A stretch of 62,152 nt of DNA from a virus (Duplodnaviria > Caudoviricetes). Below the pieces are notes generated by a model. It searched no databases. It saw only the letters and a list, made by a program, of their open reading frames with translations, and had not been told where the DNA came from. Shown piece by piece: positions 2,246-37,025 of the stretch (its first letter is position 1; every line of letters starts with the position of its first letter). The DNA lies in the IMG/VR virus record IMGVR_UViG_3300035523_000151, positions 1 through 62,152 of that record. The stretch is one strand, 5' to 3'. Position numbers and translations under genes: made by a program.

Positions 2246-2320
2246 CTGGATAATAGTCAAACTGCGCGATGATACGGGAAACGCAAACGGCCGCCAGGGG
2301 GAGGGCGGTCAAAGTTATTA

Positions 2321-2349
2321 TTGACGGTCTATCGACAGTCCGATATGCT
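2321..2349 (+). promoter_or_regulatory. SigmaA-type promoter of TPR cassette 1 with operator TATC-N8-GATA
   Basis: TTGACG-N17-TATGCT; operator TATCGACAGTCCGATA at 2330-2345. Confidence 0.7.
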
Positions 2350-2391
2350 AACGGTGAACGATATCCGGTTATCAATAGGGGAGTAGCGCAC

Positions 2392-3249
2392 ATGTCCAGT
2401 CTAGCGGAATTGTTGTGCTCTCAGGACTATCAGCAGCGAGTCGACACATGCCTGGAGGTCTTGGACGGTCGCCGTTCGGATCTCTCGCTTCGCGATTTGT
2501 CTGCGGAGGAATCTGCGCACATCCGTTATTTTCTGGCACATGCCTACCGGCAGTTGAATCGGCCGGCAGAGGCGTTGATGGTTTGCAATGAGGCTCTCCC
2601 CGACACCGTGTCTGTTCGGTGGCGCTCCATGATGCTGGAGTGTCGCGCCATGAGTCTGTATGATCTGGGGCGCCTGGACGAGATCCCCGGAGTGGTTGCC
2701 GAAGCCGAGCGGCTGGATTTGCCGGTGACGGTGAAAGGGCACCTGCTGGGGCTCCAAGGGTGCCTGTTGAGCCGCCAATTAGATCCAGCCGCCTTTTCCA
2801 CTTTTCAGGCAGCGGAAGATTTGTTCACGGATGCCAATCACGCCTATGGCGCCTCATGGGTGCAACGATCGGCGGCGGCCCTGGCCATCAAATTGAGCGG
2901 CCTGGACCGGGCTGATGAACTATTGTGCCGGGTGACGTTCCCGATGGTACTGCCAGAGGTCAGGCTGTTGCAAGCTCAGGTTCTGTATCTGCGTGGCCTC
3001 AAGTCAGAAAGCGCCGACCTGGTCAATCAGGTTATTTCCGGTTGCTGGGGCGAGCCAGCCGTCATTGATCGTGCCCGAGCGCACTACTTGCAGGCTGTGC
3101 GATTGGCCGATAATGGTCTGCTGGTTCAGGCCAGCGAGCAGGTCTATCAGGCGTTTGAGGAGCTCCGACTGCAACAGCGTTATGAGATTGACCTGACCGA
3201 CGCGTTAAATGCGCTGCGGTTCAAAATACGAAACTGGGGGGTTGCTTGA
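2392..3249 (+). CDS. TPR-repeat protein, putative RRNPP-like peptide receptor 1 (285 aa, no obvious HTH)
   Basis: All-helical TPR-like patterns (YFLAHAYRQLNRPAEAL, RAMSLYDLGRLDE, RARAHYLQA); RBS GGGGAG before ATG 2392; immediately followed by a small secreted-peptide gene. Confidence 0.7.
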   Translation: MSSLAELLCSQDYQQRVDTCLEVLDGRRSDLSLRDLSAEESAHIRYFLAHAYRQLNRPAEALMVCNEALPDTVSVRWRSMMLECRAMSLYDLGRLDEIPGVVAEAERLDLPVTVKGHLLGLQGCLLSRQLDPAAFSTFQAAEDLFTDANHAYGASWVQRSAAALAIKLSGLDRADELLCRVTFPMVLPEVRLLQAQVLYLRGLKSESADLVNQVISGCWGEPAVIDRARAHYLQAVRLADNGLLVQASEQVYQAFEELRLQQRYEIDLTDALNALRFKIRNWGVA

Positions 3250-3399
3250 ATGCGTTCGAAATGGTTTGTGATGGGAATCGCGGTATTGCTGGTGGCCTTG
3301 GCAATGTTCCTGCTTCCGGGCGTCACAGGTGCATGTACCGGTTCTAGCGGCGGCTCCGATCCCTGCCCGGACAGCGTTGTAATCTGGCCGCTCAAATAA
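3250..3399 (+). CDS. Small secreted propeptide 1 (49 aa): MRSKWFVMGIAVLLVALAMFLLPGVTGA-CTGSSGGSDPCPDSVVIWPLK
   Basis: Translated by hand; ATG directly after the TPR stop (TGA-ATG); basic n-region, hydrophobic h-region, TGA cleavage-like site; followed by a terminator. Confidence 0.75.
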   Translation: MRSKWFVMGIAVLLVALAMFLLPGVTGACTGSSGGSDPCPDSVVIWPLK

Positions 3400-3415
3400 G
3401 CAGTAGAGCGTATAG

Positions 3416-3443
3416 AAACCCCCGGTCAATCGACCGGGGGTTT
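3416..3443. terminator. Bidirectional terminator between peptide 1 and the repressor
   Basis: AAACCCCCGGTC-aatc-GACCGGGGGTTT perfect hairpin. Confidence 0.8.
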
Positions 3444-4094
3444 GCTATTGCTATTTCGTACGCCTAGCAGGACATCCATTTGCCGTTCCAAGAGTTCTGG
3501 CAGCAGTCGATTGTCAATTGCTCTGACGATGACCGCCAGGTAAGCGCCGGCCTCTGAATGTTCCAGTAGGCGTCTGAGATTTTCATCCGTGGGGCCTGGG
3601 TCGCCACGCAGCAGAAACTGCACTGGCACCTGGGCTCTTTCGTTCAGTTGGGTTAGTAGCCAAGGAGAGACATCGCTGCCGCTCAGTAGGGCGGTGATGT
3701 GTTCCTCGGTCGTTTGCAGTCGGGCGGCGATTGCCGACGCCGAGAACGCGGTAACCAACTGCTGCAAACACCAAACCGCCCGAGGGCGAGCCTCGAACTC
3801 CTGCAACTCCAGGATCTCGCCGGGCTTCAGTGTGCCAAAACGAGCACGCCAGAACCAATTCAAAGAGTCCGCCGGGCCAGCATCAGCGGGTGAATCATCG
3901 GCCGTCAAGGTGGCGAGGTCAACGCTTAATGCCCGGGCGATCTTGCTGAGAAGATCCAAACCGGGCTTGCTGACTCCGCCTTCGATTTCGCTTAGTCGCC
4001 CCTGCGAAATGCCTGCTGCTTTTGCCAAGGCGTTTTGGGATTTGAACCCCTTAACGACCCGCAAGGTGGCGATGCGTTGACCGATATTGCTCAT
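3426..4094 (-). CDS. Probable CI-like immunity repressor (N-terminal XRE HTH, second degenerate HTH, no S24 peptidase domain)
   Basis: IGQRIATLR...SQNALAKAAGISQGRLSEIEGG...LSKIARALSV; divergent from the early operon. Confidence 0.8.
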   Translation of the reverse strand: MSNIGQRIATLRVVKGFKSQNALAKAAGISQGRLSEIEGGVSKPGLDLLSKIARALSVDLATLTADDSPADAGPADSLNWFWRARFGTLKPGEILELQEFEARPRAVWCLQQLVTAFSASAIAARLQTTEEHITALLSGSDVSPWLLTQLNERAQVPVQFLLRGDPGPTDENLRRLLEHSEAGAYLAVIVRAIDNRLLPELLERQMDVLLGVRNSNSKPPVD

Positions 4095-4143
4095 CTGGAG
4101 GCCCCCAATCGAGTGCTGAGGTGAGTGTAGCACATTCCAGACT

Positions 4144-9852: not shown

Positions 9853-9929
9853 CGGGGTGTGGCTCAGTCTGGTAGAGCACTTGCTTTGGGAGCAAGATGT
9901 CGCTGGTTCAAATCCAGCCACCCCGACCA
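9853..9929 (+). tRNA. tRNA-Pro(TGG)
   Basis: Cloverleaf CGGGGTG/CACCCCG; anticodon arm CTTGC-tt-TGG-ga-GCAAG; T-loop GGTTCAAATCC; encoded CCA. Confidence 0.95.
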
Positions 9930-13760: not shown

Positions 13761-14081
13761 TTGATGAGCGTGGAACCGGTCATTTGGACTGACGTCCGGG
13801 GCCGTCTGCTACATCCGGTCCTGGCACACAACACCCAATCCGGTACCCGGGAGGTGGAGGCCAGACTCTGGCACACACCCGACGACCCGGAGCAGGTCTA
13901 CAAGCTGACGTTCCGGCTGGTGGCAATCGGCGCTGATGTTGATATCTGGGTTCGGAAATATGCACAGGGCGACAAGACCATCAACTCCGCCCACGCGGCG
14001 TATTTCGACTGGCAACGCCGGGCGGAGCGGTGGCTGCAGGGCGAGTCACTGAGCGTAGTACGGCCCCGCATGAATCGGTGA
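13761..14081 (+). CDS. Hypothetical protein
   Basis: Operon context. Confidence 0.55.
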   Translation: MMSVEPVIWTDVRGRLLHPVLAHNTQSGTREVEARLWHTPDDPEQVYKLTFRLVAIGADVDIWVRKYAQGDKTINSAHAAYFDWQRRAERWLQGESLSVVRPRMNR

Positions 14082-14130
14082 CCAACGAACAAGGGGGCGC
14101 CGGACGCCGGCGCCCCGAGGGGGTGAGGGT

Positions 14131-14397
14131 ACGAGACTACGAGACAAGAAAACCGGCATCGAGTACGACGGTGACCGGTTCAACACCAGCGCTATCGACG
14201 AAATCATCGTCGGCAACGATGACGGTATGGATTCCGCTTACCAGCGGGACTTCGACGTCCTCCTGGAAGCCAAGCGGGAATGGAAGGATCTGAATCAGGC
14301 GTTCCACGATCGCGACGTCATCATCGACAACTACAACACCAGATTCTTTGAGCCCCAGACACCGGAAGACCGGGAACGGGGCCACACCCTGTACTGA
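14131..14397 (+). CDS. 88-aa hypothetical protein apparently starting at ACG
   Basis: Open frame (T/M)RLRDKKTGIEYDGDRF...HTLY; purine-rich RBS before ACG; TGATG overlap with the next gene; no canonical in-frame start upstream. Confidence 0.5.
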   Translation, partial: TRLRDKKTGIEYDGDRFNTSAIDEIIVGNDDGMDSAYQRDFDVLLEAKREWKDLNQAFHDRDVIIDNYNTRFFEPQTPEDRERGHTLY

Positions 14398-14624
14398 TGG
14401 GAACTTCTCTCCCCCTCGACTGCATCCCCCATCTTCGGGGCACCCCGCCCCCTACCAACTGCCCCCGGTGCGCGAATGCACCACCGTGGGCGAGAAGTAC
14501 GAAGGCGTGGGAAGCTGTTCCGCCCGGCTGGGCACAACGGCTCCGGGAGCGGGGGTTGCGGCCCTTGGCGCAGTGCTCCGGGTGTATGAGTGTCCTCGTT
14601 GAAGTGGAGGTGTTACCCGAATGA
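14397..14624 (+). CDS. Small Zn-finger-like protein
   Basis: CPRC...CSGC. Confidence 0.5.
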   Translation: MGTSLPLDCIPHLRGTPPPTNCPRCANAPPWARSTKAWEAVPPGWAQRLRERGLRPLAQCSGCMSVLVEVEVLPE

Positions 14625-15034
14625 AGGCTCAAGAGGCGATGCGGCTCAAGGCCCGGCTCCGGGAACGACTGACGGACCGGTCGCAGTATGACATTGTCCG
14701 GCCCTTGACTCTGGCGACGGTGATGGCACGGGTTGCAGAGTTGGCCGTCGCAGTGGTGGACGAGCTCGGAGCCGGGGCCGCTCTGGCGCAGCCCAAAGCG
14801 GCGGCGCCCCAGCCTGCGGCCCAAAGCCAGGCGGAAAACCCCAAGTTCGCAGCGGCCCGTGAGAAGCGCCAACGGCTCTTGAAGGCTCTGGAAAACGGCC
14901 CGCTCCATGCCGGTGAACTCGGCCGGAGGGCGATGCTCACAGCTGGAGAGTGCAGTTATCTGCTCAAGAGCACGCCGGGGATTGTGAACCTCGGCGGCGG
15001 CCGGTACGGCCTCCAGGAGGCGACGGCGTCATGA
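14621..15034 (+). CDS. Hypothetical protein with a possible C-terminal winged HTH
   Basis: RLLKALENGPLHAGELGRR...GGGRYGL. Confidence 0.55.
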   Translation: MKAQEAMRLKARLRERLTDRSQYDIVRPLTLATVMARVAELAVAVVDELGAGAALAQPKAAAPQPAAQSQAENPKFAAAREKRQRLLKALENGPLHAGELGRRAMLTAGECSYLLKSTPGIVNLGGGRYGLQEATAS

Positions 15035-15243
15035 ACAACCTGACCCGCCTTCTGGGCGCCACCGGTGCCGTGCAGGCTACCGCGCCCCGACGCCGGACCC
15101 TACAGCGGGTCTTGCTGTGGTGCATAGACAACCTGGAATTCATCTTGTTGGCAGCGCTGGCTGTGCTCGCAGCGTTGGCCTACCGGTGGGCGCAGCAGAG
15201 CATTCAGACCACAGACGCGATGCTGCGGGCGGCGGGACTATGA
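15031..15243 (+). CDS. Small membrane protein
   Basis: FILLAALAVLAALAY TM segment; ATGA overlaps. Confidence 0.55.
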   Translation: MNNLTRLLGATGAVQATAPRRRTLQRVLLWCIDNLEFILLAALAVLAALAYRWAQQSIQTTDAMLRAAGL

Positions 15244-31913: not shown

Positions 31914-32102
31914 ATGTTGGAGATGCGTATTGCTCATCACGGGGTTTACTGTGGGTGGAGTTGGCGGATCATGGTCGACGGCGACTCCTGGACGCTGTTC
32001 ATCCACGGTGACGTGCAGAAGGAAATGAAGGTCGTTCCCGCCGGGACCGACAGACCATGGGTTGAGGCGTACATGGCCGAACAGGGTTACGGGCAGCGAT
32101 AA
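31914..32102 (+). CDS. Small hypothetical protein
   Basis: RBS-like GAGG upstream. Confidence 0.55.
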   Translation: MLEMRIAHHGVYCGWSWRIMVDGDSWTLFIHGDVQKEMKVVPAGTDRPWVEAYMAEQGYGQR

Positions 32103-32138
32103 CGCAGGCCGGAATTCGAACCCGAGGAGGGGTTTCAC

Positions 32139-32357
32139 GTGATGAAGAAGCAGGCTGAGGCCCTGATGCGCATCATCAACAAGGACATTCCCGGCGTGGA
32201 AACCACGGGCATGTCCAACGTAGAGGAGCGAGCAGCGAACGGCAGGCTCGTCTACAACTACGGCGTGAACTGTCAGGACACCGTGACCGGCGGGCAGTTC
32301 ACCGTCTGGACGCTGGATGACTGGCAGCGCCGGCAGAACCGGCCGCCGGTTGGATAG
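32139..32357 (+). CDS. Small hypothetical protein
   Basis: GAGGAGGGG RBS. Confidence 0.6.
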   Translation: MMKKQAEALMRIINKDIPGVETTGMSNVEERAANGRLVYNYGVNCQDTVTGGQFTVWTLDDWQRRQNRPPVG

Positions 32358-32372
32358 GAAGGAGGGGCCGTT

Positions 32373-32621
32373 ATGCCCGAAATCTTGGCCTTGAACGACG
32401 TGGTCCACCAACTCAAGGACGGCCGGTGGGTAGTAGCGAGGTGGGACGAAAAGGCGAATCAGTGGCAAGCGCCGATGACCGCCCAAGAGGCGAAGGCTAC
32501 CAACTGCAGCGCCTACTTTGCCAAGGGGCCAAATGGATTGGAAAGGCTCGGCTGCACATCCTACGCCCAACGCTCCGGGGCCGTGCGGCGAGCGAAGCAG
32601 ACATACTACGGCATCCAGTAG
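32373..32621 (+). CDS. Small hypothetical protein
   Basis: AAGGAGGGG RBS. Confidence 0.6.
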   Translation: MPEILALNDVVHQLKDGRWVVARWDEKANQWQAPMTAQEAKATNCSAYFAKGPNGLERLGCTSYAQRSGAVRRAKQTYYGIQ

Positions 32622-32626
32622 CCCAC

Positions 32627-32655
32627 TCCCCCGACCCTCCGGCCGGGGGATTTTT
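32627..32655 (+). terminator. Intrinsic terminator
   Basis: TCCCCCG...CGGGGGA followed by TTTTT. Confidence 0.7.
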
Positions 32656-32690
32656 CACGCCCTAAACACGCTCACAACTCTCCGCGCCCG

Positions 32691-32745
32691 TGTCGAACGG
32701 TGTCATGCATGCGGCATGGACAAATGCCATAAATTCCCTGATAAT
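32691..32745 (+). promoter_or_regulatory. Promoter of TPR cassette 2 with an upstream Spo0A-box-like site
   Basis: TGTCGAA at 32691-32697; TGGACA-N17-GATAAT at 32717-32745. Confidence 0.5.
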
Positions 32746-32776
32746 GGGGTTCGTCGGGAGCGAATATGATGGGGGG

Positions 32777-33649
32777 ATGACGGTGGAGGAAATGTTGGGC
32801 TACCTGGAGACCTGCCAGTACCCACAGGCCTGGGCGCAGTTCGTCCGGCTGCGCACCGCGGGGCCGGTGACGGCGAGTCTGCTGCTGCGGGGCAGTCATG
32901 CGGCATTCGGGCTGCGGGACCTGGCCGAGGCCCGCGAACTGGCGGAGGCGGCACTGGCGAAGTATCCGCACAGCGGTGAGCCGACCCGGCGGCTGGGGCA
33001 GATCCGTTTTCACCTGGCCATGGTGCGCCGGGAACTGGGCGATGCGGCCGGGGCGCTGACGCAATTCGACACGTACCTGACCGAACTGCCCACGCTCTAC
33101 CCGGACCTGGCCGGGACGGAGGGGAAGGCGCACTTCTACCGGGCGCTCTGCCTGCGCCAGCAGGAAGCCCTGGAGGCCGCTGCGGGGGCCTACGAGGAGG
33201 CCCTGCGGCTGATGCCCCCCGCTGATCCGCTGGCCGTCAAGGCCCGCCAGAACGCGGCGTGGGTGCTGTGCCTGCTGAACCGGGGCGAGGCGGCCCAGGA
33301 GCACCTGGCCGCGGCTCGCCCGCTCGCAGGCGACTCCATCGACCGGGCACACCAGACGCTGGGTGAGGCGTTCCTGGCACTCGTCACCGGAGACTCTGCG
33401 CAGGCGGCGGCGCTCTGCGAGCAGCTTTTCCGGACCTCGCACCAGGGGGAAATCACTGACACCGAGGTGCTGTCGCAGGCGGCGTGGCTGGCAGGTCGGG
33501 CCGCCATGGCGCAGCAGCGGTGGGAGGCGGCGGCGGGCCTCGCCGGTGTGGCCGTGACGTTCGCGGCCGATGCGCGGGACGCCCGGCTGATCAACGATGC
33601 TGCGGCGCTGCGGGCGCAGGTGCAGCTGCATCGGAGCGGGGTGCAATAG
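32777..33649 (+). CDS. TPR-repeat protein, putative RRNPP-like peptide receptor 2 (~290 aa, no obvious HTH)
   Basis: Clear TPRs (IRFHLAMVRRELGDAAGALTQF, AHFYRALCLRQQEALEAAAGAYEEAL, ARQNAAWVLCLLNRGEAAQEHL); start uncertain within 32777-32795. Confidence 0.75.
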   Translation: MTVEEMLGYLETCQYPQAWAQFVRLRTAGPVTASLLLRGSHAAFGLRDLAEARELAEAALAKYPHSGEPTRRLGQIRFHLAMVRRELGDAAGALTQFDTYLTELPTLYPDLAGTEGKAHFYRALCLRQQEALEAAAGAYEEALRLMPPADPLAVKARQNAAWVLCLLNRGEAAQEHLAAARPLAGDSIDRAHQTLGEAFLALVTGDSAQAAALCEQLFRTSHQGEITDTEVLSQAAWLAGRAAMAQQRWEAAAGLAGVAVTFAADARDARLINDAAALRAQVQLHRSGVQ

Positions 33650-33707
33650 CACCCCCGGCTCCGCGGGTCCGGTTTCGCCGGGAGATTAAATCGGGGGAGG
33701 GTTTACA

Positions 33708-33875
33708 TTGAAGAAGAAGCTTGCGGCTTTGGTCCTGGCCGTGGTTCTGGCGTTGGGCGTGGCTGGTGTGGCGTCGGCCGAACACGGCAACATCGGCGGC
33801 GTTGGTGTTGGTGGCGTCGTGACCACGCTGGAGCAGGGAACCGGCGGGCCGATTGGCGGCGTCGGGACCCGGTAG
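33708..33875 (+). CDS. Small secreted propeptide 2 (55 aa): MKKKLAALVLAVVLALGVAGVASA-EHGNIGGVGVGGVVTTLEQGTGGPIGGVGTR
   Basis: Translated by hand; GGGGAGGG RBS before TTG; textbook Sec signal peptide with ASA cleavage; internally repeated IGGVG. Confidence 0.85.
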   Translation: MKKKLAALVLAVVLALGVAGVASAEHGNIGGVGVGGVVTTLEQGTGGPIGGVGTR

Positions 33876-33902
33876 CACCGGGTCTGTGCGGCGAAGGGAG
33901 GG

Positions 33903-34463
33903 GTGAGGGTGGAATACGTTGTCACCGGCGAGGATGCGCTGCGGGGCCTGGTGCGCGCCGCCAGACGCGGCCAAGGCCTGCGACTTCACGACGTTGCAGA
34001 TAGCGCCGGCGTTTGTATCGGTCACCTGGCCAACTTCGAGAGAGGGGATCGCTCGATGTCGCCGCCGCTGCTATTGAGGACGCTCGCGGCGCTGAACCTG
34101 CAGGTGATTGTGCGTTCTCCCTACCCTCCCGACGCCGCCTGCCCGCATCCTCACTTAAATGTTGATACGAGTGAGGCGACGGCGGAATACCGCATTACCG
34201 ACGTGGGCCAACTGCGCGCCCTGATGCGTGCCGCCCGGCACGGTCAGAGACTGCGACTTCGGGATGTCGCACTGCACGCTCATGGCTGCGACACTCACAT
34301 CAATTCTTGGGAGATGAGCGGCGGCGGAATGTCCCTGCCCGTGCTCTTAACGACGTTGCAGTCGCTCGGGTTGCCGCTGGTGGTACGCTCGGGTTATCCG
34401 CCCGCACCCTACATGCCGTTCAGCCAGAAATACCCGCGGCGAACAGGTTCTGCTTCTGCCTGA
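33903..34463 (+). CDS. Tandem XRE/HipB-like HTH protein
   Basis: Two homologous repeats LR.L.RAAR.GQ.LRL.DVA....MS.P.LL.TL..L.L...VRS.YPP. Confidence 0.75.
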   Translation: MRVEYVVTGEDALRGLVRAARRGQGLRLHDVADSAGVCIGHLANFERGDRSMSPPLLLRTLAALNLQVIVRSPYPPDAACPHPHLNVDTSEATAEYRITDVGQLRALMRAARHGQRLRLRDVALHAHGCDTHINSWEMSGGGMSLPVLLTTLQSLGLPLVVRSGYPPAPYMPFSQKYPRRTGSASA

Positions 34464-34511
34464 TCGAACCTCTCCGTCACCACCCCCGTATTACAGCGGG
34501 GGTGGTTTCGC

Positions 34512-34631
34512 GTGGGCGGGTGGCGATATGACCGACGGCACCGATCATGGCAGGCATACGAGCGGGCGCTGCTGTGGGTGGTGCCGATCGTGGCGGCCGG
34601 GCTCCTGGCACAGTGGCTGATGGGCCGGTAA
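34512..34631 (+). CDS. Small membrane peptide (39 aa)
   Basis: MGGWRYDRRHRSWQAYERALLWVVPIVAAGLLAQWLMGR, translated by hand; GGGGTGG RBS; ends before the terminator. Confidence 0.4.
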   Translation: MGGWRYDRRHRSWQAYERALLWVVPIVAAGLLAQWLMGR

Positions 34632-34635
34632 CAAC

Positions 34636-34686
34636 GCAAAAAGCCCCCGGCGTTCCCTGTGGGGGGAGGCCGGGGGCTTTTGCTTT
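34636..34686. terminator. Bidirectional terminator at the convergence of the + and - arms
   Basis: AAAAGCCCCCGGC...GCCGGGGGCTTTT. Confidence 0.8.
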
Positions 34687-34698
34687 GGGACCGCGTAA

Positions 34699-34992
34699 TT
34701 AGGGGGCCGGGGTCGTCGGTGGCTTCTGCGCGCCATCCTTGACCGTGCTCTTGACCATCATGGCCGCCACCCAGAGACCCAGCCAGGCCACCAGGAGGGC
34801 ATACAGGGGTGGTTTGGGCTGCTGGGCGATGTACCAGAGGACCGCCACCAGCAAGGCCAGGAAACCGGGCGCCAGGAACCGGGAGGCGGGGGTCTTGAGC
34901 AGATGCACCATGGCGGCCCGCTCCACCAGCAGGAAAATCACCAGGGCGATGCCCATGCCGAACGCCTGAAGGCCTTCAAGACCAGTGCTCAC
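34699..34992 (-). CDS. Holin-like protein (3 TM)
   Basis: AAAGGAG RBS before GTG 34992; three hydrophobic segments; adjacent to the endolysin. Confidence 0.65.
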   Translation of the reverse strand: MSTGLEGLQAFGMGIALVIFLLVERAAMVHLLKTPASRFLAPGFLALLVAVLWYIAQQPKPPLYALLVAWLGLWVAAMMVKSTVKDGAQKPPTTPAP

Positions 34993-34996
34993 GGAA

Positions 34997-35674
34997 TCAA
35001 CTCCTTTCGATCGAATCCGCCTTCGGCGGCGCCAGCCGCAACGCCACGGCCGCCAGCTCCCACCAGAGCACCGGCTGCATCGGATGCCGCCGCTGCTGAA
35101 GCAGGCCGGCCTGCAGCATCTGATCCATGAGCACGTCCTGCCAGGGCGCCGGCGTGGGCAACCGCCCGATGCCGAACAGCGCCGTGGCCACGTCGCTCTT
35201 GAACTGGTCCCAGGTCCGGCCATACTGCGCCAAGAACGCAATCGGGTCCTGGTGGTCGGTGTCCTGCGGGTAGAGCCGGCTGATGTCGGCGTGTGAGAAC
35301 AGGCGATCGATGCCCCAGCCGTAGCGGTGCAGGATGTCGGCCGCTAACCAGACGGCCCGATTCCAGACCTGCAGGAACTGCGCCGTGGCGTTCGGCCCGG
35401 CCGCCGGTTCGCACATCTCGAAACTGATGCTGTCGGCGTTGGCGGTGGGGCCGTTGGCGGGGCCTACAAACCCCTCGGGCACCAGCTGGCTGATGGAGTC
35501 CCAATCCAGGTAGTAATGCGCCCAGCCATGTTGCCGGGCGCTGTCCAGCCAGCGGAAATGACCCTCGTCGGTGGCGCCGGGGTTGGCCGTGCTATGCGCC
35601 ACCAGACGCGTGGCCGTTAGAGGGGTGCGCTCCTGCAGATCTTCCTGGAGAAACCGCTGCAACACTTGATACAC
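34997..35674 (-). CDS. Endolysin, N-acetylmuramoyl-L-alanine amidase (Amidase_2)
   Basis: VAHSTANPG, WAHYYLD, SISFEMCE, FSH...DHQDP. Confidence 0.88.
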   Translation of the reverse strand: MYQVLQRFLQEDLQERTPLTATRLVAHSTANPGATDEGHFRWLDSARQHGWAHYYLDWDSISQLVPEGFVGPANGPTANADSISFEMCEPAAGPNATAQFLQVWNRAVWLAADILHRYGWGIDRLFSHADISRLYPQDTDHQDPIAFLAQYGRTWDQFKSDVATALFGIGRLPTPAPWQDVLMDQMLQAGLLQQRRHPMQPVLWWELAAVALRLAPPKADSIERS

Positions 35675-35709
35675 GGTGATTACCTCCTTGGGCACGAAAA
35701 TGGCCCGGC

Positions 35710-36227: not shown

Positions 36228-37025
36228 CTAAGGAATCGATACTGTAGCGACATACTGCAATAGAGCACCGCTGGGATGAAACCATTCGCGGCGGACTCTG
36301 TCTTCTTCGAATTTCCGATGCAAGGCTTGCTCCAGGCCCCTATTTCCGCGCATCTGCCCAAGGAGACGAAGGGGTACAGGGGATCCGGTCGACAGAGCGG
36401 CCAATCGCTCATCAGGGCGATCGGAGAAGCCGATTTTGATCGGCCCCCCATCTCCCCACTGGATAAAATAGATCCAGCCGCCTCTTGAACAGTCCCGCGT
36501 CTTGCGCTTCTTTTTTCCGGCCGTCGAAGAACCCGAGAACGCAGTGGGCCACCGGTAGCCGCAATCGCGTTCCTCAGCATGATCGTGTTCGAACGATGCA
36601 CGCAGACCGGCCGCCGCAAATCCCTGCATCAATTCAGCAAGGCGCCGAGCAACTCGCTGTAATTTGATGGTTAGCAACCCCGCGCCATCTGCGTCAGACA
36701 GCAACCCATACAGCAGGGCGGGGATTTCACAAGGAAGGCCCTTTCTTATTTCTCCAGCGCTGCCCGTAAACTGGATCGGTTCCGCCAGCGTGGTTACAAG
36801 GAAATCCGGGATTTCTCGGCTAATGTATCGCCTGATACAAGCCGTCAATTCGGATTGACTGGAGAAGCCAACCAATCCCAGAAGAACGTCATAATCAAAG
36901 ACGCGTAGCGGATCGTCATCTGGATCTTCTGGTGATTCCTCCTCCAACACCGCGCACGGAACCGAAACGCCACCGATCTCCAAGGAACCCATGTGAGACG
37001 CCTTCATAACCCGCTGTTCGGTCAT
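36228..37025 (-). CDS. P63C-like N-terminus fused to a T5orf172/GIY-YIG domain (antirepressor-like)
   Basis: ASHMGSLEIGGVSVPCAVLE; WIYFIQ...IKIGFS...RL..LSTGSP...LEQALHRKF...REWF. Confidence 0.7.
   Translation of the reverse strand: MTEQRVMKASHMGSLEIGGVSVPCAVLEEESPEDPDDDPLRVFDYDVLLGLVGFSSQSELTACIRRYISREIPDFLVTTLAEPIQFTGSAGEIRKGLPCEIPALLYGLLSDADGAGLLTIKLQRVARRLAELMQGFAAAGLRASFEHDHAEERDCGYRWPTAFSGSSTAGKKKRKTRDCSRGGWIYFIQWGDGGPIKIGFSDRPDERLAALSTGSPVPLRLLGQMRGNRGLEQALHRKFEEDRVRREWFHPSGALLQYVATVSIP

Follow-up and report, generated by a model that had tools for sequence, protein, structure and literature searches.

The 62,152-bp provirus record IMGVR_UViG_3300035523_000151 (G+C about 64%), which we analysed at its full length and refer to as the window, carries between positions 32,691 and 34,463 a cassette of three plus-strand genes for a tetratricopeptide repeat (TPR) protein, a small secreted precursor and a tandem helix-turn-helix (HTH) protein. 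On comparative evidence the cassette is likely to be a Rap-Phr-like peptide signalling module of the RRNPP type, with a predicted peptide-binding receptor, carried as an accessory unit by a temperate phage of a Symbiobacteriaceae-like host. The reading is carried by the pairing of receptor and propeptide genes, which recurs throughout a large family of relatives. That the HTH protein serves as the output of the sensor is a weaker proposition, weighed on its own below.

All three genes lie where the original prediction had placed them. The cassette begins after a terminator-like hairpin with a T run (plus strand, 32627-32650, arms 32627-32636 and 32641-32650), which ends the upstream early-gene unit. 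A sigma-70-like promoter candidate follows at 32717-32745, with 10 of 12 consensus positions and a 17-nt spacer; it is the sole such site within 32000-35000, where shuffled sequences average 0.5. The longest open reading frame (ORF) of the TPR gene runs from 32690 to 33649 (319 aa, GTG start). Since homologues align from Met30 and the promoter-like site lies inside this long frame, the gene most likely starts at 32777, which gives a protein of 290 aa (32777-33649), the length that had been predicted. After a gap of 58 nt comes the 55-codon propeptide gene (33708-33875), and a further 27 nt past its stop, with no terminator between them, the 186-codon HTH gene (33903-34463) with its own ribosome-binding site. 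A perfect 10-bp hairpin directly after the HTH stop (plus strand, 34479-34506) is a weak terminator candidate, and a strong two-way terminator hairpin (34639-34681) separates the cassette from the converging lysis genes. Bounded in this manner by terminator-like hairpins, the three genes look like one independently transcribed accessory unit, which would be expressed in the lysogen. Among sequencing runs, no RNA run was listed as holding the sequence, and the single DNA run listed may be the source sample.

The conservation of the receptor-propeptide pair was followed through several collections. A word-indexed search of 5.8 billion proteins returned three non-self relatives of the TPR protein, 48-53% identical, one of them named as a Symbiobacteriaceae bacterium. 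Scanning genomes with an alignment of these relatives gave five loci, four labelled as Symbiobacteriaceae metagenome-assembled genomes (MAGs) and one bearing another label. At all five, the TPR gene is followed by a signal-peptide ORF of 40-53 aa with an IGGVG-type unit directly past the predicted cleavage site. Four of them share a core-chromosome neighbourhood that has no HTH gene, with 2H-phosphoesterase-like and THUMP-type genes on one side and threonine aldolase, thioredoxin, aspS and hisS on the other. One record, L006, is titled as a Mycobacterium MAG, yet it has the Symbiobacteriaceae-type neighbourhood together with the TPR-propeptide pair, and its genome (G004) falls within the family search centred on genome G001; the label is probably a binning or naming error.

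A profile search of four genomes extended the set to 31 places (15, 6, 9 and 1 per genome). In 30 of these a signal-peptide ORF of 36-56 aa lies on the same strand, at offsets between 62 nt ahead of the TPR stop and 187 nt past it. Run over all fetched DNA (447,862 strand-bases), the same detector picked up 49 such signal-peptide-like ORFs, the true propeptide ORFs among them, which puts the background at no more than 0.042 per 380 nt. Chance is therefore excluded for the pair. Metagenome loci give the same picture (signal-peptide ORF in five of five, L046 being a duplicate of L005), and the pair is also present in the mobile-element-like locus L051 and in L052, a single-contig genome of the family where inspection by eye located the signal peptide, beginning with an internal Met within a longer ORF. 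It had been stated beforehand that a peptide ORF not conserved beside TPR homologues would speak against the system; the pairing holds at 30 of 31 places and at five of five genome and five of five metagenome loci.

The family is large. Profile matches at E ≤ 1e-15 occur in 14 of the 15 genomes of the family to which G001 belongs, up to 21 in each, and a library of 1.84 billion proteins contains 614 representatives at E ≤ 1e-30. Among the best 150 of these, about 120 are single-stretch proteins of roughly 210-440 aa and the rest are long multi-repeat TPR proteins. Their source names read only 'hypothetical' or 'tetratricopeptide repeat protein', as do those of the at least 16 proteins that a profile from alignment A2 recovered from the word-indexed database, none with an HTH among those listed. 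Viral contigs yielded no TPR relatives, whether queried with the single protein or with alignment A1. A receptor tree of 25 rows, built without the truncated L026 and without L033-L038 and L042-L045, places all IGGVG-type peptides (window, L002-L006, L014 and L015b) in one receptor clade with support 97/96, while other peptide classes go with other well-supported clades.

Copies of the family also travel on mobile elements: this provirus, L051, a cassette preceded by a serine recombinase gene (L027) and one beside lysis genes (L039). At L051 (G010:C39:8000-27900) the TPR gene (about 14241-15104, minus) and the peptide gene (14038-14157, minus) are followed by a terminator and no HTH gene, and the peptide is of a different class; the surroundings are mobile-element-like, with a methylase gene 71% identical at the DNA level to window 28.1-29.8 kb and with DUF3850, SLT and AlpA-like HTH_17 genes. 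The conserved chromosomal locus of related genomes encodes a first unit almost identical to that of the window, so the phage module probably shares or taps a host signal. The cassette may thus listen to host density or interfere with the host's own signal.

The propeptide itself bears the marks of an exported precursor. The 55-aa ORF has a TTG start with a purine-rich, Shine-Dalgarno-like run a few bases upstream, and its product starts with basic residues, continues with a hydrophobic core and has an Ala-x-Ala type site following residue 24, in keeping with the predicted ribosome-binding site and signal peptide. Codons 1-24 (33708-33779) would encode the signal peptide and codons 25-55 (33780-33872) the pro-region. 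Both of the related units that had been noticed are present: the first, residues 25-33 (33780-33806), begins at the predicted signal-peptidase site, and the second, residues 42-53 (33831-33866), ends two residues short of the C-terminus. At the DNA level they appear as a direct repeat (33792-33805 and 33852-33865, 86% identical). A lipoprotein reading of the ORF was rejected, as there is no cysteine at the cleavage site, and its matches to LPAM_1, Spy, ExtJ and WGxxGxxG are below cut-offs and confined to the signal peptide.

The weak internal repeat of the window becomes credible through relatives L003 and L014, which duplicate the same IGGVG-type unit (0 of 200 shuffles each). Duplication recurs across the family: an internal duplicate reaches p ≤ 0.01 in 7 of 35 propeptides, which represent no fewer than four peptide classes. 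In these precursors 0-2 residues separate the predicted cleavage site from copy 1, and likewise 0-2 residues follow copy 2 before the chain ends. Judged from these positions, the repeats would bracket a mature unit of about 6-10 residues whose ends are set by the signal peptidase and the stop codon. Duplicated pheromone units are known in Rap, NprR, PlcR and AimR propeptides, as PMC9765709 and PMC11343458 describe. Ribosome-binding-site-like runs precede 31 of the 35 peptide ORFs. Codon changes among 12 IGGVG-clade genes identify the motif as the more constrained part at the amino-acid level, with 237 synonymous and 247 non-synonymous changes in its 10 codons compared with 288 and 861 in the 20 codons of the signal peptide.

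The receptor is a TPR domain and little else. The 290-aa protein matches Pfam TPR_2 with 29.8 bits (cut-off 27), and profile scans together with the structural model gave no HTH match, no signal peptide, no membrane segment and no Rap-type N-terminal bundle. An AlphaFold2 model, built from an alignment of 25 family members, has a mean predicted local distance difference test score (pLDDT) of 96.4, a predicted template modelling score of 0.91 and 15 helices that form a single TPR superhelix from residue 3 to 289. Foldseek with VIA re-ranking matched it to RapI with Z 22.7 and a root-mean-square deviation (rmsd) of 3.5 Å over 259 residues (chain residues 105-373), model residues 1-268 aligning to this part of RapI. 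Further matches, to TPR domains only, are NprR (Z 22.0 and 21.2), pLS20 Rap (21.4), RapH (20.9) and AimR (19.4), and phage Rap proteins are also among them. It is clear that the receptor corresponds to the TPR domain alone, one step past Rap in reduction. Since it has no effector module of its own, it must act through another protein.

The candidate for this partner inside the cassette is the HTH protein, whose two repeats (33903-34130 and about 34182-34412) are 51% identical over 73 aa (E 9e-21). It had been called a two-repeat XRE/HipB-like gene, which is right in form, with similarity to Pfam HTH_31 (23.0 bits, cut-off 27) and, as the best NCBIfam similarity, to Y4mF/HipB TIGR03070 (31.1 bits, cut-off 71.65), but both matches stay below their thresholds. 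The protein is nearly an orphan. The word-indexed search of 5.8 billion proteins returned only itself, viral contigs and the metagenome scan yielded no relatives, and a three-repeat HTH profile run over the 15 family genomes recovered the gene at L014 and one weak match (E 5e-5). A scan of 52 ORFs that flank 26 paralogous loci turned up one HTH homologue beside a cassette, again at L014. There a TPR gene is followed by a propeptide gene with a duplicated IGGVG-type unit and, 10 nt on, by a gene for an 89-aa single-repeat HTH_31 protein, 43% identical to repeat 2 of the window (E 1e-13) and 37% to repeat 1 (E 1e-11). The L014 and window triplets have the same gene order at a receptor identity of 37%. 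Synteny of the triplet, suggested as a check at the outset, thus gave a divided answer: the order is kept at L014, but the HTH gene is largely unlinked in relatives, being found at one other cassette and in one of 15 genomes, apart from the weak match.

A second line of evidence is library protein P0107 (440 aa), in which a TPR domain of the family (60-351) is fused to a C-terminal XRE-type HTH_31 domain (382-436, E 1.4e-15). The match of P0107 to the family profile runs from end to end (E 2.3e-49); between its HTH and that of the window the similarity is no more than generic. TPR-HTH fusions like this are of a kind that often marks interacting partners. The C-terminal position of its HTH is opposite to the order of canonical RRNPP receptors, where the HTH is N-terminal.

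These observations have to be set against the best surviving alternative, in which the signalling pair is real and the tandem HTH is an unrelated passenger, either a phage regulator or an orphan antitoxin-like repressor, while the receptor, like chromosomal Rap proteins, acts on unlinked host proteins such as sigma/anti-sigma factors or sporulation regulators. We hold this to be nearly an even proposition. Most cassettes, about 36 others, have no such HTH gene beside them, so that the family cannot depend on one, and relatives of the HTH are very rare. The neighbours of the paralogues are diverse and include extracytoplasmic function (ECF) sigma factor genes at L017, L019, L020 and 3' of the L014 triplet, with SipL and DivIVA nearby. 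What speaks for a linked role is the 27-nt gap free of a terminator between propeptide and HTH genes, the order kept at L014 at 37-43% identity, and the existence of a fused form in P0107. Each of the last two can be discounted to some degree. The two triplets have phage lysis genes (cell-wall hydrolases) as neighbours and a terminator element in common, and they may descend from one phage-borne arrangement and so not be independent. P0107 is a single unverified gene model from a one-member cluster; it is absent from the 15 family genomes, where its three matches cover the TPR part only (33-38% identity), and has no match in a sample of 401 genomes of the phylum. Complex prediction for the TPR protein with the tandem HTH scored 0.00 (mark 0.32), which argues neither for nor against binding; a single-sequence fold of the HTH protein (mean pLDDT 37) was too poor to use, and a look for operator-like repeats near the cassette found nothing convincing. 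Of the three-part split system originally proposed, the receptor-propeptide pair is well supported and L014 and the P0107 fusion agree with the remainder, but the HTH as a TPR-controlled output is not established; given the signalling reading, we consider that role a possibility falling a little short of an even chance.

Several observations on regulators near the family belong here. The ECF sigma factor genes at L017, L019 and L020 are divergent genes at orthologous cassettes, and the one 3' of the L014 triplet forms a pair with a zf-HC2 anti-sigma gene (L039 6898-8659); ECF sigma and anti-sigma factors are possible unlinked targets of the receptors. At L029, a distant paralogue, a GntR/UTRA regulator gene (2667-3485) lies 138 nt after the propeptide gene on the same strand, and convergent XRE genes stand at L036 and L037. 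Each HTH repeat of the window ends in a proline/tyrosine-rich tail (34120-34142 and 34400-34440), and the mature part of the L051 peptide is proline/aromatic-rich; one idea is that the tails may mimic a peptide ligand of a TPR groove.

Taken as a signalling module, the cassette would work as follows. The 55-aa precursor would be exported by Sec and cut after residue 24, and the 31-aa pro-region, going by the position of the repeats across the family, would undergo extracellular trimming that leaves one or two short IGGVG-type peptides. The N-terminus of the first copy would be made by the signal peptidase and the second copy would lie at the C-terminal end. The peptide would then be taken up by an oligopeptide permease, for which related genomes encode plenty of binding proteins (each of four has at least 16 SBP_bac_5 genes), and bind the groove of the cytoplasmic 290-aa TPR superhelix, as the conserved pairing and the fold suggest. 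Trimming, uptake and groove binding are proposed by analogy with Rap-Phr and from the conserved pairing. The receptor would act by contacting another protein, as Rap proteins do. For the chromosomal paralogues this partner would be an unlinked protein. In the phage and one related island the likeliest candidate, at the same less-than-even grade as above, is the XRE-type HTH protein encoded by the same transcript, in the window a single-chain pseudo-dimer, and the resulting design would be a three-part switch like Rco/Rap/Phr of plasmid pLS20.

A number of results weigh against the signalling interpretation and keep it at the level of a likely one. Signal peptides were called with a crude rule of our own in place of SignalP or PrediSi, and at L034, the exception among the 31 places, no peptide ORF could be detected. 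The internal peptide repeat of the window, taken alone, is not significant (p = 0.08, 200 shuffles) in a glycine-rich peptide. The best conserved unit is N-terminal in the pro-region, whereas known precursors of the Phr, AimP and PapR kinds usually have their active peptide at the C-terminus. The receptor has neither of the effector modules that define known RRNPPA receptors, failing at the N-terminal HTH or three-helix bundle by which Rap, NprR and other RRNPPA members are recognized. It belongs to no specific Pfam, NCBIfam or PHROG family, and its sequence searches gave generic TPR matches; the ESM Atlas returned generic TPR clusters only, and a PDB profile search gave generic TPR proteins only, with no RRNPP family among the 60 of 256 matches listed. 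Generic TPR superhelices also rank first in the structural comparison, eukaryotic LGN-type proteins reaching Z of about 24. With the Rap and NprR matches tied with these or slightly below them, the modelled fold fits an RRNPP-type peptide-binding domain without discriminating it from other TPR proteins, and it is no proof of kinship.

In another alternative the secreted peptide itself is the effector, bacteriocin-like or surface-active, and the TPR protein is its chaperone, immunity factor or regulator. The pair would be conserved in that case as well, the return of the peptide into the cell is only predicted, and the precursors are secreted and glycine- or aromatic-rich. The conserved units, however, are just 6-10 residues long and often duplicated, the TPR protein is soluble, lacking both a signal peptide and a membrane segment, and no transporter, maturase or immunity-like membrane gene is linked. 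The sole radical-SAM neighbour, at L003, is a YfkAB equivalog (517 bits) and no peptide maturase, on which ground a reading as ribosomally synthesized and post-translationally modified peptides was rejected. Up to 21 diversified pairs per genome suit signalling dialects better than toxins. We regard an effector peptide as improbable.

Slightly less probable still is an uncleaved, membrane-anchored mini-protein that tethers or regulates the TPR protein in the manner of an anti-factor, with no diffusible signal. Cleavage is indeed predicted by a simple rule only, and several paralogues adjoin ECF sigma factor genes. Yet the conserved and selected part lies beyond the hydrophobic segment, that is outside, in contrast to the cytoplasmic TPR protein; nearly all members have an Ala-x-Ala type site at the same place, and duplicated terminal units are typical of processed pheromone precursors according to PMC9765709. 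An origin of the small ORF and its repeats by chance in GC-rich DNA, where spurious ORFs are many and where the window's repeat by itself would allow it, is virtually dismissed, being already refuted by the synteny counts and opposed by the ribosome-binding-site-like runs and by the synonymous excess in the motif.

In the window, the cassette sits at the point where two gene blocks converge. A serine recombinase gene (1-1740, minus) stands beside an HTH gene and a CI-like repressor gene, and a long plus-strand early block follows with nuclease/ATPase, DnaB-type helicase, methylase, RuvC-like and sigma-like genes. The remainder, beginning at about 34.7 kb, has lysis, tail, head and terminase genes on the minus strand. 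The cassette has no Rfam match inside it; a tRNA-Pro (anticodon TGG) at 9853-9929 in the early region is the only Rfam or ARAGORN match in the window. Between the HTH stop and the strong terminator lies a putative gene of 39 codons with a hydrophobic segment (34512-34631), and L051 has a putative 26-codon hydrophobic ORF at the equivalent position. On the lysis side an Amidase_2 endolysin gene (34997-35695, minus) is followed by a gene whose small product would span the membrane several times. For the long ORF 34699-35241 an internal Met is the probable start, and a T5orf172/MUG113 gene lies at 36228-37025. An approximately 55-nt core of the two-way terminator (window 34626-34725) recurs at three sites of genome G001 (L053, L054 and L055; 84-91% identity), all within about 1.5 kb of TPR-propeptide cassettes at the L014 and L028 loci, and was not found in G002, G003 or G010. 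This core may mark a shared phage or moron boundary.

RRNPP-type peptide quorum sensing, including phage arbitrium and phage Rap-Phr systems, is known nearly exclusively from Bacilli, Lactobacillales and some Clostridia. A large and diversified receptor-propeptide family in a distant high-GC branch of Bacillota, carried by a phage as well, would widen the known range of phage-host peptide communication. We found no description of the family in the literature and none that links RRNPP signalling with Symbiobacterium, within a search that includes part of the PMC10075063 supplement, where a prior listing is possible; the part covered holds one 'loose' Symbiobacterium thermophilum candidate, a 422-aa protein at a different locus. 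Whereas RRNPP-type signalling itself is known, the new elements are the TPR-only receptor architecture, the host lineage, the placement of the mature unit and the phage carriage with a linked tandem HTH. The most likely role of the cassette is signalling between phage and host cells, and the module offers a testable case of a phage that shares its host's signal. It also provides a minimal sensor for studying how TPR receptors relay a signal with no built-in effector domain, and the repeated units define candidate mature peptides precisely enough for synthesis and testing. A bolder picture, which we rate as rather unlikely, is of a Symbiobacteriaceae peptide 'language', undescribed within the reach of our searches, with TPR-only receptors and dozens of dialects per genome, from which the phage captured a host-matching dialect to listen or to jam; it would be wired to the separate tandem HTH as a split RRNPP regulator with a fused counterpart in P0107, possibly controlling lysis genes or lysogeny.

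How the cassette relates to known systems can be judged from a published signature of RRNPP systems, which PMC10075063 gives as a TPR receptor of 250-500 aa, an adjacent small ORF and a Sec signal. Here the receptor is all-TPR with 290 aa, the 55-aa ORF lies 58 nt downstream of its gene, and a Sec signal is called by our crude rule. The HTH part can be compared with the Y4mF/HipB antitoxins (TIGR03070), with which each repeat shares an HTH followed by a short strand. It differs from them in a score far under the cut-off and in being a tandem duplicate within one chain, and there is no HipA-like or other toxin gene beside it, its neighbours being the propeptide gene and the terminator.

With the arbitrium system AimR-AimP-AimX the cassette shares a phage-encoded TPR receptor, whose model aligns to the TPR domain of AimR with the Z score given above, and a secreted precursor. 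AimR, in contrast, has an N-terminal HTH and a position in the lysogeny module. The receptor of the cassette lacks an HTH, and its gene stands next to the lysis genes at the distal end of the early region. With about 30 kb between it and the recombinase and CI-like region, the cassette does not belong to the arbitrium type. An arbitrium-type position is held instead by another cassette of the window (2269-3399), which lies between an HTH gene (1845-2114, minus) and the CI-like repressor gene (3426-4133, minus) and consists of a gene for a 326-aa helical protein (2269-3249) and directly after it a 49-aa ORF (3250-3399) with a signal-peptide or lipobox-like N-terminus. The description of the two cassettes as unrelated was fair: hhalign of the 326-aa protein with the family profile gave a probability of 13.8%.

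The closest likeness is to Rap-Phr. In both systems two genes make up the cassette: the first encodes a receptor lacking a DNA-binding domain, the next a precursor of about 40-55 aa with a Sec export signal. Genomes contain many diversified paralogues, prophages carry copies, and some precursors have duplicated pheromone units. The TPR superhelix superposes on RapI with the rmsd given above. Rap proteins are described in PMC9765709 as the sole RRNPPA members without an HTH. The differences are that the cassette receptor lacks the N-terminal three-helix bundle, its model covering Rap residues from about 100 to 370, that it has 290 aa compared with about 375-390 for Rap, and that no sequence homology is detectable. 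The host family is Symbiobacteriaceae, whereas the same source reports Rap from only three genera. Compared with Phr, the best conserved unit lies directly past the signal-peptidase site rather than only at the C-terminus.

The proposed step from receptor to regulator has its model in plasmid pLS20, where, according to PMC8014075, a Rap deficient in DNA binding lifts the HTH repressor Rco off DNA and the Phr* peptide inactivates Rap. Contact by that Rap is thought to go through its N-terminal domain, which the cassette receptor does not have. Rco is a tetramer and is encoded convergently, while the putative counterpart, known here from sequence, is a tandem single chain encoded in the same operon. 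What the cassette has in common with Rco/Rap/Phr*, and also with RapI-PhrI acting on ImmR in ICEBs1, is a mobile element that combines a non-DNA-binding, predicted peptide-sensing TPR protein with a separate XRE-type HTH regulator, and this is the design that the original prediction had envisaged.

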